NCBI GenBank assembly: GCA_030295235.1
Contig: AP026130.1
Location: 992,001 to 1,056,000 of the forward strand
Direction of reading: 5' to 3'
DNA from: Fistulifera solaris
Lineage: Eukaryota
DNA length: 64,000 bases
In this document: one piece after another, positions 44,925-55,730 of the stretch
Layout of the letters: each line of letters opens with the position of its first letter
How positions within the stretch are numbered: position 1 is the first letter of the stretch
Program-made: the position numbers and the translations under genes
The notes under the pieces: generated by a model
The model's input: only the letters and a program-made list of their open reading frames with translations
Told to the model about the DNA's origin: nothing
Database searches by the model: none

Positions 44925-45629
44925 ATTGTCTTTAGTAAGTCGTGGCGAAATACGGACAACCACTCTGGACTATAGTAGTAAATGATGTTGCCTTTATTGG
45001 AAGCAGACGGATTTTCTGAATGAAGAGAGCTTTTTTTGAAGCAGCCGCAAAAATGTTGAGATCCTCATTATTATTGCTGTCAAACGATTGATTATTCTCG
45101 AGCTTCTTTGCATCTTTTGCCTTGCCTGGCTTTTTTTATTATCTCACAACGACTATTGAAAATGCGGTGGGATGTGCAATCGGATTTTGCATTGTTAGAT
45201 GCTGCACTCTTGACACAAACGTCAGATACCGCAGATCGCCAGCGATCAAGCAGCAAGGCGTCCGTCAATTCTTACGTGTCGCCGTTAATTGCCATTCATC
45301 AATCAATTCGAAGGAAAAATCCGGTTGCTGCTGCGGCCGCGTCGACACCAGTGGTCCGAATCAACTATTTATGAACGATGATTTGCGAGCGGATGATTTG
45401 TCTTCTTCGGATCTCTTTGATTCGACTGATCCGTGGGAGTCTACATTATCGCCGTCGCGCGCTCCGAAGTATACAATCAAGACTCTAAGTGAAGAGAACA
45501 TCGTGGATTCGGAAGGAATGGGAGACGAAAAATCAATTGAGGAGTGTTCTTGTCGATACATTGGCCGTCGGAGTAGTATCCAAGGAGGAACGTCAGATAT
45601 ATGCGCCCATTGTGGGGAAACGACGGACG

Positions 45630-48600
45630 ATGTCGTCGGGTGAACTACGGCGACATCGATCTGTCAGCGTATCTCAGCAGCTACAAACCCATTTGTCGCA
45701 ACTGCAAAAGGAAGCCATGCGGCAAGATCCACAACACGCACAGGCCCTACTCCAGACGACGCCACAACTTCGATTCATCTGCCCGGCATCCACGGATATG
45801 CAAGCCGCTGGTCACTTGAGCGACATGAATCTGCTACAACGCTCGCTCATCCCACTGGTTCAGTTGATGGACGGGCAGGCGGATGGTTCGAGTATGGCCC
45901 GGACGCCAGGATCTCCATTGATGCCGGGAATGTCGGAATACAAAGACAGTTTGCTCCGTGATCGCGCGAATCATCAAGCAGCCTCCGAGCTCGCGTCTCT
46001 TATGTGGGTATTGGCTCACGAGATGAGCCAAGAAGATTTCTTTGCCGTAGAGTCTCAAGTATTTACGGAAGTCTTTGGTCTGGTTCATTCATCGGACAAG
46101 CAACTTCGAATGGCTGGATTGGCCGCCTTGGATGCTCTTCTGGCGGCCCCGTCTGCAGATGAAGAGAAGAAATCGATCAAGTGTGCCAATACCTTGTCGG
46201 CGGGACTGCGAGCTGCCAATGGTGACTTCGAATACCTTTCGGCGGTTTCGCTTGCTCTGGGGCACATGGCAACACGCACCGCGAACGTTGATTTGGTCGA
46301 GTGCGAAGTGTCACGTGCATTGGAGTGGTTGAGTTCGGAGCGCTCGGATCGAAGGTGAGTCAAATCGTCATGGCGACGTGAATGCGATAGCTCTTACATC
46401 TTCATTTGTCGGTCAGACTTGCGGCTTGTCTTTCCTTGAAACAATTGGCGATCAATGCTCCAACTACTTTTCATTCCAAGACAAGTCAGTCTACGTTAGG
46501 TCAAGGAGGTTCCAACGAATTCTTGGATCAAATTTTCCAGGCCATTCGCGATCCACAGCCTATTGTTCGTGCATGTGCAGCGGATGCGCTTTCTCAATGT
46601 CTAAAAATCATTGTCGAAAGAAAGCATTTTTCGATGACGGGATTGCTTTGTCAGGTATATTTTGCTTTAATGGAAGGATTGGATCAAGATTTTACCCGCA
46701 AGAAACGACCTCGACAGGCTGTCATGGCTGCTGAGGCATCTCAGCACGGTTCATTGCTGGTGGTCTCTACGATGCTCACATTGACAGGCGACTTCATGTT
46801 ACCCAGGTATGAAGAAGTATGCCGGGCGGTACTCGCGTGTCGCTATCACGACAAAGCGTTGATCCGCCTTGAGGTTATTCGTTTGCTTCCTCGTCTTGCC
46901 AACGCAAATCCAAAAGTTTTTGGTAGACGTTTTCTTGAAGATGCCCTTACGTTCTTGATCGAGTCCGCTTCGAACCCAACTGCCCCTCGCGTTGGAGTTG
47001 ACGTTCGTCCATCGGCTTATAAAGCGATTGGGGAACTCATTCTGGCAATGATGGACGAGGAAACAGGACAGGTTATCGGATCCTTAAACGCACCCACAAT
47101 CAAAATGATATCTGATCCGAAAGGTCCGGCTTCGGGGACGATTGTTGAGTTGAAGGCTCAGGGGATAGTGTACGAGAAGTTGCCTGATATTTTCTATCTC
47201 GTTAAGGCTGGCCTGAAATCTTCTTATGATATACCGGTTAGTTCGCAGACGATGAAGAAGGGTGATTCGTTAAAGCTTTCTCTAAGTCCGGTTCTTCATT
47301 GTGCTGCAAATCTTGTGGCTGCTTTGGGTGATTTGGCCAAGCCTTATGTTCCGGATTTAATTGATGACATGTTCCGAGCAGGGTTGAGCAACGACTTGAT
47401 TCGTTGTTTACAATCCATAGCCCAGTGTGTCCCTGACCAGCAAGAGGTTATTGAGGACAGAATGCTCCAAGAAGTTTCCATTTGCTTAGCTGGATTAAGG
47501 GATGTTTATGACCCCCTCTCGTCGAGTATCATCTCCGGATCAAATTTTCCTCTTACTATGCAAACGTCAAATGGGAACAGAATGAGTGCACCAGGCAAGG
47601 GAACCGACAAAATTCAAATCCAAATGTCGGGCGAGCCTGCTGTTGTGCATTCTTTGGTCCTCAGTCTGCAGACACTTGCTTCGTTTGGTGGGACGATTCG
47701 TAAGACAAAAGCATCAGGCAGCGCCGTTCCTCTCCCTTCCCTTTGTGGAAAATGTAGCTTCCCGTTATCTTGCTCATCCATCGAGTGAAGTTAGGAGAGC
47801 AGCTGCGCTGACTTGCTGCGCTCTTCTACTGCCATTTGAACTTGCATATAAAAGCCGACTTGGAGGGCATACCGGTGTCATTGTTGATAACGTACTTGAA
47901 AGTTTGCTCAGGGTGGCTGTGTCGGATCCCTCTGGATCGGTACGAATATGCGTTGTCCAGGCGCTCGATTCGCGCTATGATTCATTCTTGTGTCAGCGAC
48001 ACCACCTCTCTGAACTCTTCGTACTGTTGCAAGACGAAAACTTCGCTGTACGCACGGCGGGTCTCCGGCTCCTTGGACGTCTTGCTGCAATCAATCCTGC
48101 TACGATACTCCCAGTTATGCGCCGCTTTCTAATCGACTCGATCGTTGAAATGCAATGCGGAATCTACAGCGGTAGAGGAAGAGAAGAAGCCACGCGTTTA
48201 TGCGTTGTATTTTTAAAGGCCAAACCGCTGCAGCGACTAGTACAACCTGTGCTGCCGTCGCTGATAGATGCCTTGCCATTCCATGGCGCCGCTCCGCCAC
48301 GACTAGCTTCGGCTTCTTTGGAAGCTCTTGGTGAGTTAGCCTTGGCGAGTGGCGTTGCCCTAAAGCCATGGTTAAAAGATCTTGTTCCTCGTGTCCTTGA
48401 GATTATGGAGGACCAAAGTAGTGCAAGCAAGCAAAGGACAAGTCTAAGAACCCTGGGTCAAATCGCAAGTGCCACAGGATACGTTATCAAGCCTTATTTG
48501 GATCACCCGGGGCTTTTGCTACAAGCGACAGACATTTTGCCTGCAACAAAGAGAGCCCCTTGGTCGCTTCGTCGAGAAGTTATTCGTACACTAGGAATAT

Positions 48601-51600
48601 TCGGAGCGTTGGATCCTGACATGCAGTTAAGCGCTGCATCAAAGGCGAGAAAAGGGGGAGCTGTTGGAGGGGCTTACTTCGAGGAAGCGGACTTTCGCGA
48701 TCAAGGACAAATGGATCAGGACGAAGGAAATGATCACTTGTCGCCCACGAACCCGGAAGAAAAACAACGGATAAATGGTACACAAGAATATCTCATCGAA
48801 AACGACGAGAATCTCCCCGCGTATCTATTCATGCACGAACAGTATGCCATGTTTGCCCAACCCATGTCGGAGCTTATTCCTGCCAAACGCATATCACCAG
48901 CAGATGAAGACTTTTACCCGACAGTTGCTGTACAAGCTTTGATGAGAATATTCAAAGATCCCAATTTAACTGTTCACCACAGCTTGGTGATTCAAGCTGT
49001 CATGTATATTTTCAAATCGATGGGACTTGGATGTGTTTCCTACCTTCATAAGGTTGTTCCTCACATGATCTCGTCGATCCGAACATGTGTTTCAAACAGT
49101 CTGAGAGAGTCTATCTTAAAGCAGCTTGCTAGGCTCAGTCTTATTGTTCGAGAACATCTCAGACCCTACGTAGCAGACATCTTCGATGTGGCTGAAAGCC
49201 TGTGGTCATCACGACATCTTGCCACAGTCTTCAACTTAATTTCAAATATTGCAGTAGGAGTTCCGGATGCTTTCCACAAATTCATACCCAGGCTAATTCG
49301 GAGGTTACTGTCTACTTTTGATGATTTGCAGGTGGCTGACTGGACCGAAAGTGAAAAGCGAAACCCGTTGAATAGAGGAAAAGAAGGGACCGAGCGCCTA
49401 CAACTGCTCCTTTTCAGTCTCTCAAGTTTGAAGGGGGTGCTTAGCGACTATCTGCATATTCTCATTCCAGCATTACTCAAACTAGCCGATGCTTTGGCGT
49501 CGCTTGGATTAAATCTCGATGCGGGCATTCCTGAAAAAACTCTCAACGATCTTTCCGTTATGGCATTTCGTACTATATCAATTCTGATTGAGAGCAAGAA
49601 CGCTGCGAACAACAGGGTACCTTCAACATACAAAGGCCATAGCCAATATGATGTCAGGTTTCGAGAAAGTTCGGAGAAAGGATTGCCTTCCCGAGTCGTA
49701 CAGCCAATCACCCGACTCCTCAGAGACAAACCTCCTCACAGCATCCCAGTCTGTTTAGTCATGGTTGAAACATTGTGTGTGTGTGCGAGACTCATTGGTG
49801 TATCAACGTGGTTGAAGCTTTACGACAAGGAAGTACGCCATGCGCTTTTTGAATGGCAAGTTGGCTATCGCATTGCTGCTATGAATCTTGCGACTTTCAC
49901 CTTGGATGTGGTCGGAGATGATCACCCTCGGTGCCTTCAGGTGTATGACGACTTTCTGCAAAGTTTTAAAAACATCGACGATCGATCAGCAGCAAATGCC
50001 TTTAATTTTGCAACGAGATTTACTTCGACGCCGAACGCAATATACATTTCAAGCATCGACGACACGCCTGAGGCTTATGAACAGCAAATGATTCTGTCAA
50101 GCCCCGCTGGGGCAACGAAACACAAAGTGAATCAACGCAATCTTCAACGAGCATGGGACGTCTCCCAGCGGTCATCTCGTGATGACTGGGACGAATGGAT
50201 GCGTAGATTTTCCATTCAACTCCTACGAGAAGCACCCGCTCCCGCATTAAGAAGTACAGCTAGTTTGGCCCAAGCATATCAGCCACTAGCTCGGGAACTC
50301 TTCAGTGCTGCGTTCGCTTGTTGTTGGAACGAGCTCAGCAATCCGTTTAAGGCAAATCTTGTACATGCACTGAAAACAGCTTTCGTTGCTGACGTTTCAC
50401 CTGAAATACTACAAGCACTCCTTAACCTGGCTGAATTTATGGAATACGATTCTTCTGGTGGACTTCCAATTGAAATACCAGTTCTTGCGGATTTGTCTTT
50501 GAAATGCCGTGCTTATGGCAAAGCACTTCATTACAAAGAACGAGAATATTCTCAGGGTGGAGGTTCTTCTTGCATCGAATCTTTGATCAGCATCAATAGA
50601 AAACTAGACTTGCACGGTAAGTTTACTGCAAAGCAATTCCGCTTTTTACCATTAACAATACATTCACCGTCACAATGCAACAGAGGCCGCTCTGGGTATT
50701 CTAAAAGCGTCGACTATGAAAGACGTGCGTCCCGATGACATACCCTCGACAAGTTTATCTACGAGATTCTCACGTCATCACGCGCGCGATATGTTCTACT
50801 CTGTTATTTGGAGCACTGAAGAACACCAACAGTCGAAAACAGATGCTGCGGATATGACAGCAAAAGAGGAGTTGTGGTTAGCCAGGCTTGGTTCATGGAC
50901 CGATGCTTTAGCTGTTTACGAAAATAAGTTGAGCAGGAATCCAAACGACCCCGAAGCAATTTTAGGTTGCATGCGATGCCTAGGAGCAGTTGGTGAGTGG
51001 AGAAAGGTGCTTGAGCTAGCGCATGAGAACTGGGGTATAATGAGTGGTACATTGAACAAACTTGGAGACGGTGTTGGGCATGCTCATACGAACCCGAGAT
51101 CTAAGCGAAAAGCTTTGAGAATCTGCGCTCAATCTGCCTGGAGACTTGGACAATGGGACAAACTTGAAAAGTTTGCCACACAACTTGTCGGAAGTTCCAG
51201 TCATCAGCCACATCAACCAATTTACTCTTCTGTCGACTATGATGGTGCCTTCTACAGTGCTGTGTTACACGTGCATCGAAAAGAGTGGGGCCCCGCCGCC
51301 GAAGCGATTGATGGGGCCCGAAAAGCTATGGACAGCAGGCTTACTGCCTTAATGGCCGAGTCGTATAGTCGCGCCTATCCAAGTATGGTAACAGCTCAAA
51401 CCCTAGCGGAAATGGAAGAGATAATAGAATTCCATAAGCTCGAGGAACATGCTTTGTCAAGCGACAATCAGCATCCTGCAAACCGTCCTGATGCAGAAAG
51501 AGCCCGAGCTCGCTTATTATCAGTTTGGAGGGATCGACTCGCTGGATGTCGTATGGATGCTGACGTACATGCGTCTATACTTGCTGTTCGGTCGCTCGTC

Positions 51601-54600
51601 GTGAGACCGGAGGAGGAAGTTGAGGCCACTCTTACTTTGAGTAATCTCTCAAGGCAGGCTCAACAATTTAAATATGCCGAAAGAGTGCTTCTAGATTCTC
51701 TAGAGGCGCTAAATGCCGACCTCGATGGACCCGTCTTTGGTTTGGGCCTTCCTCCGTCTCTTCGCACCTCGCACGATTATTCGTCTGTTCCCGCAGCTGC
51801 GTTACCGAACATTGTCGACAATCTACTTGCAGGTGACTTCAAAAACATCGTTTTAAATTACGGGTCGACACACGAACAATGGAGCAAAAGTTAGTAGCTG
51901 AAGCTGGTGGGCTACAGCGGTGAGTTCGTTTCCTGTAATATTGGTCCAACTGATATCGTTTACTCATTTTCCCACACAGACTTGATATCCAGCATCGTCT
52001 CTATTTCGCTTACGTAAAACACCTTTGGTACACCGAAAGAAAAGATGAAGCCATGGCAAGGCTTTCTTGCTTTTGCGACGTTTTGGAAATGATTTCGAGT
52101 TGTGAGCAGGTCACTGATTCATCGCTTCGTGTTGCCAGCTGGCTAGAGCTTGGAGAATGGAAGCTTTCACAAGAAGCACCGCCTGCCCTTCTCAGCAGAC
52201 CACTGCAGCTTGACACATTGACCATCTTTAGGCGTGCCACGACGCTACACAATTGTGGTTACAAGGCCTGGCACACCTGGGCTCTCTTGAACCTCCGAAT
52301 CGTCCTAGAGCAGCGCGAGCGGGAGAGCTCTGGCAAACTGTCCGTAACACATTTAGGAAGAAATCTGAGGAATCACGTTGTTGCAGCTGTGAAAGGATTT
52401 GTCAATGCAATTAGTTTAGGGACTAAGAAATGGAGTGCATCCGTTCAACAGGATTTGCTGAATGTACTTACCTGCCTATTTCAGTATGGGAAGCTTGAAG
52501 ACGTTGCTACTGTGATTAACGAATGTATTGGCAACGTAGCTATCGAAGCTTGGCTAGGTGTCCTTCCACAGCTATTGGCTCGCATCCATATTGTGGACCC
52601 TTCGATTAGGGCGGTTCTCCATCCCTTGCTCATCAGGCTTGGCGAAAAACACCCTCAGGCATTGATGTACCCTCTTTCCGTTCTTCTCAACAGCCCCGTC
52701 GCCGAAAGAAAAGCATCAGCTGAAAATCTGATGAATTCGGTAAAAGCTCATTCAAGTGCTTTGGTGGAAGAAGCCCAGATGGTTTCTTCCGAGCTTATTC
52801 GAGTTGCAATCCTGTGGTTGGAAATGTGGCACGAGGGCCTGGAAGACGCATCTAGGCTCTACTTTGGAGAAGGAAACGTAACAGGGATGTTGGACCTTTT
52901 GTTCCCATTACACGAAATGCTTGAAAAGGGAGCGGAGACACGAAAGGAAATAGAATACCTGAATAATTTTGGGCAGGACTTGTCAAAGGCCTTTTCTTAT
53001 ATTAAAGAGTACAGTCGCTTGGCGTCAATGGATGGAGAAGATCCGTCTCGTCGTGCTGGCGGTAATGCCCGAGTAAGCGACGAAGCAGAGACTGCGATGA
53101 ACAGAGCCTGGTAAGTTGATTGAGGATGTTGGTTGCTTGTATAGCTTGTATAGCCTGTGTTTTACTGATAAAGATTCGTCTCAATGAATCCAATATGACG
53201 TAGGGGTAAGTGTGCAATTTTGCGTTTGGTCCACCGGTCAACTTGGGTGCTCTAATTTGTTTATTATTAAAGATATCTATTATATTGTCTTTCGCAAGAT
53301 CAACAAACAGCTTCCTGCTTTAACGAAGCTGGAATTGAATCAGTGCTCACCGGCGCTGAGTAAAGCACGGAATTTGGAGCTCAGTGTACCTGGAACTTAC
53401 AGGATAGACGGTTCCTATATCAAGATCGATAGAGTGCAATCGGAGGTCGAAGTCATTACAAGTAAGCAGCGACCGCGAAAGATCACGATGAGAGGAAGTG
53501 ACGGAAAAAATTATCTATTTCTACTCAAGGGACACGAAGACTTGAGACAGGATGAGCGTGTCATGCAATTGTTTGGGCTAGTAAACGCTTTGTTGGTCCG
53601 TGATTTGCAGACGAAAAAACATGATTTGAAGATACAACGTTATGCGATTTCTGCGCTCTCTCATAATTGCGGTGTCGTTGGGTGGGTTCCGCACTCCGAC
53701 ACTCTTCACAGTCTCATCAGAGACTACCGTTTAAGCAAAAAGTTACCATTGAATATGGAAAACCGAGAGATGGTCCGCATCGCTCCAGACTATGATTTGT
53801 TAACCGTGATGCAAAAAGTGGAAGTTTTTCAGAAGCACTGAGAAAGACACCTGGTGGCGGCAACGACTTGGGTGAGATTTTATGGCTGAAAAGTACAAAC
53901 AGTGAAGAGTGGCTTGATAGAAGGACGAAATTCACAAGAAGTTTGGCTGTCATGTCGATGGTCGGATATATCCTTGGTCTCGGAGATCGCCACCCATCTA
54001 ATCTCATGTTAGACAAAGTGTCCGGCCGTATTCTACATATTGATTTTGGGGACTGTTTTGAAGTTGCGATGAATCGCGAAAAATTTCCAGAGAAAGTGCC
54101 TTTTCGACTTACAAGAATGCTTATCAAAGCGATGGAAGTGTCTGGAGTGGAGGGAAGTTATCGCTCGACTTGCGAGCGCACCATGTCAGTTCTTCGCGAC
54201 AGCCGAGATTCTCTGGTCACAATGCTTGAAGCTTTCGTTTATGATCCATTGATTAGTTGGCGTTTAGCAGATTTGTCGAATAGTGGCTCTTCGCATAAGC
54301 CATCGACTCATCATACTGGGGCCGAGATTGGACCAGGATCGCTTAGTGACGGTGTACCACTGGAAATGATTCGTACAGGCAGACCAAGAGTGCAATCCAT
54401 TCGCGAGCTAGCAGATGAAGACATTGACGACGACGATGTTTATGGTATAGACCAACACGCGCGAGGATCTTTTCAAACGACCCAACCCAAAACAACAATG
54501 ACGCACCGGGCAGAAGTCGAGCTCGATCCATGCAGATGTATGCTAACATTCAGAACTGGGCAGCAAGTTTGACAACGGATGCTAGGATTGCTAGTATCGC

Positions 54601-54907
54601 CGCAGAGCGATCTGAACAAGCATCAGTCGAGGGGTCTCTTGCGCGTTCTCGAATCGAAAGAAGCATGAAGCAACGCGAAATACTAAGTCTATTACACGGG
54701 AACGACGGAGTAGCTTTAGAGGAGGTGTTAAATGAAAAGGCTTTGAAAGTTATTCGACGCGTACAAGACAAGCTGACTGGAACTGATTTTCCGGACTGCG
54801 AAGGGGAGCCCCTAGACGTTGCTGACCAAGTGCAAAGGTTGATCGTCCAAGCTACTAGCTGTGAAAACCTGTGTCAGCTTTTCATTGGATGGTGTTCATT
54901 TTGGTAA
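45630..54907 (+). CDS. TOR: Target of rapamycin kinase (HEAT-FAT-FRB-PIKK-FATC); introns 46355-46416, 50617-50683, 51920-51979, 53111-53203, 53206-53272; several frameshifts; start may extend to 45372
   Basis: [37 protein letters not shown] (FRB), [41 protein letters not shown] ..[14 protein letters not shown]. Confidence 0.97.
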
Positions 54908-55177: not shown

Positions 55178-55730
55178 TGTCCAGAATTTTTGGAAAGTCC
55201 ACAGCATTTCGGTAGGATCGAAAAAACTGGTCCAGAATTTCTGGACAACCACAGAATTTCTGTATGACAAGCAATAACGTGTTTCCAGAATTTCTGGAAC
55301 GTGCACTTTCTTTCGATACGATCAAAACACAGTTTCCGGAGTTTTTGGAGCGCGCACGTTCTTTTGTCATGATCCAGAACACCGTGTCCAGAATTTCTGG
55401 AACGTCCGCAGCATTTCGGTAAAAAGCGAAAAAAACTGGTCCAGAATTTCTGGAACGTGCACTTTCTTTCGATACGATCAAAACACAGTTTCCGGAGTTT
55501 TTGCAACGCGCACGTTCTTTCGTCATGATCCAGAACACCGTCTCCAGAATTTCTGGAACGTCCACAGCATTTCGGTAAAAATCGAAAAAAAAACTGGTCC
55601 AGAATTTCTGGACCACCACAGAATTTCTGTATGACAAGCAACAACGCTTTCCAGAATTTCTGGATCGTAACATGCACCGTTTCCGGAGAGTTTGGAACGC
55701 GCACTTTCTTTCGTCATGATTCATGATCCA
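55178..55730 (-). repeat. Array of 11 CCAGAATTTCTGG-type quasi-palindromes spaced ~52 bp with four recurring spacer types; related to the 27.3-28.3 kb array in opposite orientation
   Basis: Palindromes at 55181, 55232, 55285, 55336, 55388, 55441, 55492, 55544, 55599, 55651, 55683. Confidence 0.92.

Follow-up and report, generated by a model that had tools for sequence, protein, structure and literature searches.

The gene for target of rapamycin (TOR) in the diatom Fistulifera solaris probably contains an exon of only two nucleotides. The stretch analysed, hereafter the window, comprises 64,000 nucleotides (nt) of GenBank assembly GCA_030295235.1 (contig AP026130.1, positions 992,001 to 1,056,000, forward strand), and all coordinates are counted from its first letter. 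By far the best reading of its letters is that two complete, canonical GT-AG introns stand 2 nt apart within the region encoding the FRB domain, and that the GG between them would be a constitutive exon in diatom TOR. If it is spliced as inferred here, this exon would be among the shortest described and the first that we have found reported for a diatom or for TOR. It is an addition to the ultra-short exons already known, which include 1-nt cases in plants and fungi, and its evolutionary setting is unusually clear. Standard gene-finding and read-alignment programs will cut TOR short or shift its frame at this point, in the FRB helix with the Trp that we take to be the rapamycin-contact residue.

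The gene has the domain order of a TOR/mTOR kinase. On the forward strand its Pfam matches, all above cut-offs, follow one another as mTOR_dom, HEAT, FAT, FRB, PI3_PI4_kinase and FATC (Table 1). The start of the exon upstream of GG (51980) was read from the frames, after a 60-nt intron (51920-51979). Once the indels supported by sequencing runs are applied, the remainder of the 2,400-codon gene is open.

Two predicted introns and the reading frame of the FRB helix

The upstream exon ends AAC AGA GCC TG at 53110 and is followed directly by GTAAGT (53111-53116). An AG at 53202-53203 precedes GG (53204-53205) and a second GTAAGT (53206-53211); the last acceptor, AAG, ends at 53272, and the exon resumes with ATATCTATTATATTGTCTTTCGC at 53273, the sequence after the acceptor running ATATCTATTATATTGTC. 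Around the disputed donor and acceptor sites the letters of the window are CCTGGTAAGT and TTAAAGATATC. All the elements listed in an earlier reading of the letters alone, hereafter the original prediction (donors, AG, GG, CTAAT and AAG), were found where it had placed them. Its statement that both introns are of typical size, 93 and 67 nt, holds as well, because the other TOR introns are 62, 67 and 60 nt long; the 67-nt one (50616-50682) is confirmed by a spliced contig of sequencing run X3, which joins 50615 to 50683 across GT..AG. All five TOR introns that were read have GT[AG]AGT..AG boundaries. The candidate exon is flanked by AG and GT, and each of the paired introns has its own full set of signals and a normal length. 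Inside intron 1, positions 53135-53152 form a perfect tandem duplication of a 9-mer (GCTTGTATA twice).

Why would two such letters be needed? The upstream frame reads ..AETAMNRAW, and homologues keep ..AW/D[IL]YY.. free of gaps (a slash marks the point at which exons meet or meet an intron). The contiguous motif AW[DE]x[YF][YFHW] occurs in 97 of the 120 longer homologues, 8 of the remaining 23 show that join too, though with variant residues, and W/D is contiguous in 137 of the 176 rows of the set used for the trees below. The mRNA must therefore read GCC TGG GAT ATC. Joining TG, GG and AT gives TGG GAT (junction GCCTGGGATATC) and restores the conserved helix, as had been predicted. When 53110 is joined straight to 53273, with 162 nt (53111-53272) removed as one intron, the result read directly is GCC TGA (junction GCCTGATATC), the stop codon that the original prediction had attributed to skipping of GG.

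A full enumeration of the region gave 92 single GT-AG or GC-AG introns that keep the frame open, and not one of them restores W/D; their products lose between 2 and 90 residues or gain as many as 20. Among two-intron solutions a single one succeeds, namely 53111-53203, GG, 53206-53272. With none of 92 single introns against this one pair, the flanking exons are out of phase in the manner that defines an ultra-short microexon (3 nt or less). The only single-intron solution of nearly the right length with an open frame would run from the donor at 53111 to an AG at 53209-53210 and retain intron 2 as coding sequence, turning the Trp into Cys and adding 20 residues to the FRB helix. We regard this as highly improbable: it would abolish a Trp conserved at 90% or more, and it inserts its 20 residues where the same 137 rows are gap-free, the other rows reading through or ending in an intron. 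In addition, the piece it would retain has the composition of an intron (T 40%), a perfect donor, a CTAAT motif and an acceptor. Chance seldom produces such an internal site. When the intron interior was shuffled 200,000 times and both introns were required to span at least 40 nt, 2.7% of the shuffles contained a usable AG-GG-GT; the share fell to 0.05% for a GTRAG donor and to 0.01% for GTAAGT.

One feature of the sequence had not been noted in the original prediction: the genomic letters at 53109-53111 already read TGG, and those at 53272-53274 GAT. Removal of the 160 nt from 53112 to 53271, with the ends TA..AA, would give an identical mRNA, exactly GCC TGG GAT ATC and without a microexon, and the mature mRNA, being compatible with both readings, therefore cannot separate them. 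Such a single non-canonical intron is nevertheless extremely improbable. TA..AA is not a known boundary pair of spliceosomal introns, the five introns read in this gene all have the ordinary boundaries given above, and both perfect GTAAGT sites, together with their match to the intron positions of relatives, would be left unexplained.

Table 1. Features of the TOR gene region, in window coordinates
Feature	Position	Strand	Basis
TOR gene, approximate coding extent	45489..54907	+	Open reading frame (ORF) chain, Pfam domains
Exon: end of FAT and FRB profile positions 1-76 of 99; ends ..GCC TG (Trp codon bases 1-2)	51980..53110	+	Frames, Pfam
Intron 1, 93 nt, GTAAGT..GACGTAG, phase 2 in Trp codon (position A)	53111..53203	+	Sequence
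CTGAT, branch-point-like, in intron 1, 34 nt before its AG	53165..53169	+	Motif match only
GG exon (predicted), 2 nt: Trp codon base 3 and Asp codon base 1	53204..53205	+	Sole two-intron canonical solution; letters confirmed by X1 contig
Intron 2, 67 nt, GTAAGT..TTAAAG, phase 1 in Asp codon (position B)	53206..53272	+	Sequence
CTAAT, branch-point-like, in intron 2, 16 nt before its AG	53252..53256	+	Motif match only
Exon(s): rest of FRB, kinase domain, FATC	53273..54907	+	ORFs, Pfam; three overlapping ORFs joined in frame by run-supported T's
Other TOR introns, from frames	46355-46416 (62 nt), 50616-50682 (67 nt), 51920-51979 (60 nt)	+	GTGAGT or GTAAGT donors
1-nt homopolymer differences	45048, 45131, 45347, 45614, 47734, 51885, 53824, 54469		Window versus runs

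Intron positions in relatives and their history

Relatives carry a single intron at one or the other of the two positions, an evolutionary context that the original prediction missed. The protein matches are diatoms, with named sources that include Amphora, Cylindrotheca, Chaetoceros, Attheya and Corethron. Position B (TGG G/GT..AG/AT) can be read at the DNA level in one metagenome locus, L013, where an 89-nt intron has the form TGG G/GTACGT..CCAG/AT ATC. Among the 36 protein rows labelled B, 35 have a peptide that goes on with 'W G' followed by K (20 rows), T (7), A (2), E (2), R (2), M (1) or V (1), corresponding to GGT plus AAG, ACN and so on; the remaining row has an ambiguous 'RK'. Several of these tails enter the next exon out of frame, as an AG/AT acceptor predicts. 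The donor context of intron 2, GGG/GT, is common to the window, L013 and the 35 position-B relatives.

Position A (TG/GT) is found in the closest relative, P0199 (87% identical), whose peptide 'W YVYY stop' corresponds to TGG TAY GTN, that is, TG/GTAYGT. In the more distant P0310, a tail of 21 codons is followed by the next exon shifted by one base, which fits a single 64-nt intron at position A, TG/GTATGT..CAG/GGAT. The position-A intron is absent from the 35 position-B relatives and from L013. As for the twin arrangement itself, P0199 shares the TG/GT donor, as read from the peptide only, and the other relatives carry only one of the two introns.

The picture from 75 metagenome loci is similarly mixed: W/D is contiguous in 57 and, on inspection, in 3 more; intron B is present in 1 (L013); 4 (L068-L071) have an intron 5 nt further on; and the region is missing from 10. 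Some of the contiguous loci sit on 20 to 114 kb contigs and are thus genomic, so that intron B is not universal in diatoms. Within about 40 nt around the FRB Trp codon, different diatom TOR genes seem to have introns at four or more further positions: after ..NK, after ..AET+G, inside the Leu codon of WDL/YY and after ..YYTV (P0003, P0227, P0209/P0220/P0229/P0230 and L068-L071, at about 5446-5710 in L068). This stretch looks like a hot spot of intron turnover. A separate oddity in locus L023 is a lone in-frame TAG (about 2505-2507) at the Gln of relatives (AEAALN-stop-AW), within some 400 otherwise open codons; an error of sequencing, an allelic difference or a codon read in another way could each account for it.

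Which of the two introns is the older? Trees were built on up to 386 residues before the Trp. The 176 rows were the window and 175 proteins, drawn from 199 (P0001-P0079 and P0199-P0318) by the presence of the anchor motif and at least 240 upstream residues, the others being dropped. In a FastTree tree of all 176 rows, the window groups with P0199 (99), nested in a starred 9-row clade that includes 6 B rows. A quick IQ-TREE analysis of 53 rows (47 from a 53-row clade and 6 outgroup rows, without the long-branched P0281 and five near-duplicates) likewise makes the window and P0199 sisters, with 100 in the Shimodaira-Hasegawa-like approximate likelihood ratio test (SH-aLRT). They lie inside a starred 8-row clade (100) that holds 5 B rows and one contiguous row, and P0310 falls in a separate 7-row clade at 99 with 3 B rows. 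In an approximately unbiased (AU) test on 22 rows under LG+G4, the window, P0199 and P0310 as one clade were rejected (p = 1.2e-6), the tested group having been chosen after the tree had been seen.

Because the window is nested in a clade with position-B introns, the 93-nt intron 1 looks like a later gain. Intron 2 would accordingly be the older, an intron of this diatom clade, and the younger intron 1 would have entered between TG and GG before the window organism and P0199 diverged. More tentatively, and with considerable doubt on our part, the window could be a surviving two-intron intermediate of a 2-nt intron slide, in which an old intron at B acquired a new neighbour at A. Were B then lost precisely from the twin arrangement, AG/GGAT would remain, the A-only state of P0310. 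With the single clade rejected, position A appears in two separate B-bearing clades, so that gain may be directed to the place immediately upstream of a 5' splice site that already exists, and a possible route would be reverse splicing in a spliceosome assembled at that site. If directed gain of this kind is true, a long-debated mechanism would become testable in diatoms.

The origin of intron 1 was also sought in its sequence. No copy of it was found: across the 64-kb window and the 75 related loci, matches do not exceed 12 nt. The sole direct repeat is GGTAAGT, at 53110 and 53205, and this is the donor consensus itself; a target-site duplication based on it was dropped, as it predicts GCCTGG before the first copy where the window has GCCT. 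The introns have no match to Rfam families at E up to 1 and no unusual fold (z-score -1.27; 24 of 200 shuffles fold at least as well).

Sequencing runs and the accuracy of the letters

Four public sequencing runs hold the stretch (X1-X4), all from one study. X1 is DNA-like, with all 30 bins covered and contigs colinear through introns; it may be the sample behind the window assembly, though it corrects that assembly elsewhere. In contrast to the complete cover of X1, that of X2-X4 is patchy and RNA-like, and they cover TOR exons at 99% identity or more.

Eight 1-nt differences separate the window from the runs in 10.5 kb, all of them in homopolymer runs of 3 to 7 and four of them in or beside TOR coding sequence. 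An extra T follows 53824 and 54469 in all four runs, X1 drops one base at 47734, and X1 and X4 have an extra A behind 51885. The differences at 47734, 53824 and 54469 are the reason why the TOR ORFs overlap, as false frame breaks; the one at 51885 shifts the frame just before an intron. The window assembly seems to carry uncorrected homopolymer errors, and other apparent frameshifts in the window are suspect. In the light of these eight differences, the worry of the original prediction about the accuracy of the letters was fair. Just downstream of TOR, at 55179-55500, the summed depth of X1 is about 1300, compared with about 20-45 elsewhere, with many loose ends and odd joints, and this segment looks like a high-copy repeat.

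Could two bases be missing at the first donor? If the genome had, for example, TGGGG before the first GTAAGT, one intron would be enough and AG-GG-GTAAGT would be ordinary intron sequence. The homopolymer indels lend this some colour, since one of them falls in a GGGG run. However, a 415-nt contig from X1 runs colinear with 52809-53223, free of mismatches and gaps, and it spans both the first donor and the GGGG run that the original prediction had singled out, confirming the genomic letters of each; no indel is listed within 53100-53290 in the four runs. An error here would also have to comprise two bases and not one, P0199 likewise reads TGG TAY GT without an extra G, and a perfect internal site would have to have arisen at the 0.01% chance level. 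An assembly error is thus very unlikely.

The RNA-like runs are less informative at this place. X2-X4 have no depth over 53111-53271, and the final 38-50 nt of the upstream exon are missing from them as well. In the bin 53073-53423, the depth of X2, X3 and X4 is fully explained by contigs starting at 53308, 53272 and about 53384. One X3 contig aligns from 53272 and is preceded by two unaligned letters; as no more than a hint, this start is the pattern expected from a de Bruijn branch between ..CTGGGATATC and ..GTAGGGATATC. Protein searches returned no transcripts or proteins of the species itself, the best identities being 66%, 79% and 87%.

Several points weigh against a constitutive GG exon. 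No contig in the four runs bridges 53110 to 53273, so neither the GG-containing mRNA nor its intermediates are seen, and in X2-X4 the end of the upstream exon is uncovered too, so that the hole over the introns is weak evidence. The nature of X2-X4 as RNA is guessed from their behaviour. The cover of 53224-53290 by X1 is deduced from bin depth, with no listed contig, and the difference at 45614 places a homopolymer error in a GGGG run. The intron states of relatives, except that of L013, are read from gene-caller read-through peptides and not from DNA, and the reading of P0310 assumes that its Gln codon is CAG. Finally, the evidence covers one TOR copy, the one within the window.

Is GG mostly skipped instead? 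Splicing from the donor at 53111 to the acceptor at 53272 would imply a decaying or non-functional allele, or else a balance between productive and unproductive transcripts that serves as a switch. Both sites concerned, donor 1 and acceptor 2, are strong, 162 nt is no great length for an intron, and no transcript displays inclusion of GG. Yet the rest of the gene is open after indel correction, the RNA-like runs cover its exons at the high identity given above, and X1 has no joint that would reveal an allele without intron 1. Furthermore, TOR is generally essential and single-copy in diatoms. Predominant skipping is therefore unlikely, whereas skipping as a minor by-product is quite possible. 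The on/off splicing switch proposed in the original prediction is unsupported by any observation in this analysis and is given little weight. Its central claim, that TOR would not be functional without the 2-nt exon, gains from the comparison of homologues and from the enumeration as far as the need is concerned; inclusion of the exon in the mRNA stays inferred, since no RNA contig bridges the junction.

Order of splicing and known ultra-short exons

On the reading with two canonical introns, these would leave one after the other rather than together, since the stretch of the intron 2 donor that pairs with U1 includes the acceptor AG of intron 1, at -4/-3 of that donor. Removal of intron 1 first would recreate the ancestral donor context CTGGG/GTAAGT, through an intermediate GCCTG/GGGTAAGT that is 93 nt shorter; removal of intron 2 first would give TAG/GGATATC, through an intermediate GACGTAGGG/ATATC that is 67 nt shorter. 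On paper, either order would leave a normal substrate. Pairing of donor 1 with acceptor 2 would skip GG and end in GCC TGA, a dead-end product. The published exons of 1 and 9 nt make a fixed splicing order plausible by analogy.

The nearest counterparts are in plants. A constitutive 1-nt exon in Arabidopsis APC11 was demonstrated by reverse-transcription PCR and reporter assays (Guo and Liu 2015, PMC4674806), and 1-nt exons of APC11 and VPS55 occur across land plants (PMC8831610). Like GG in TOR, these exons are too short for exon definition, lie between canonical introns, keep the frame and were missed by annotation. They differ in having 1 nt and not 2, in belonging to plants and not to a stramenopile, and in being proven by assays, whereas the TOR exon is predicted from sequence. 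Moreover, the plant microexons are ancient and conserved, while GG in TOR looks lineage-specific. For Arabidopsis APC11 the authors favour intron definition with removal of one intron after the other (PMC4674806), and in the 9-nt exon of potato invertase the downstream intron goes first (cited in PMC4674806). A phrase search of the literature found no natural 2-nt spliceosomal exon and no link between microexons and diatoms, and '2-nt' is absent from the main text of two plant microexon papers, whose supplements may list some.

In fungi, the CYP621A P450 genes of Fusarium have a 1-nt exon of the form AG-G-GT, called the second example in the text of that paper (PMC12940212). The likeness to TOR extends to out-of-phase exons in a conserved motif, to G as the exon letter and to comparison with orthologues that do not have the arrangement. 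That case has reads from the Sequence Read Archive and 20 or more orthologues behind it, and its authors propose loss of a base with rescue by a cryptic exon (PMC12940212), whereas in TOR gain of a whole intron would be the cause.

Other systems resemble the TOR arrangement in part. A recursive-splicing ratchet point, AG/GTAAGT, is a zero-length exon (summarised in PMC4674806); it too has a nearly juxtaposed acceptor and donor and removes a stretch in two steps, but it leaves nothing behind, while TOR would keep the 2 nt of GG, which lie between AG and GT and are required for the frame. A stwintron-mediated 1-nt intron shift was described in a fungal DHA1 antiporter gene (Fekete et al. 2017, PMC5587772). 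There, as in TOR, discordant canonical introns are found a few nucleotides apart, with a two-intron intermediate that is open to alternative loss and is extant in some species (PMC5587772). In a stwintron, however, a splice signal of the outer intron is interrupted by the inner one, and nothing exonic separates the two; in TOR both GTAAGT donors and both AG acceptors are intact in the DNA, the two letters between would stay in the mRNA, and the shift would be of 2 nt. In Drosophila, near intron pairs mark old and new positions less than 32 nt apart in orthologous genes (Lehmann et al. 2010, PMC2891723), and such pairs are argued in that text to be very unlikely to coexist in one gene (PMC2891723). 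In the TOR gene of the window both positions are occupied, and two intron positions occupied together 2 nt apart would provide a concrete gain-then-loss route for apparent intron sliding.

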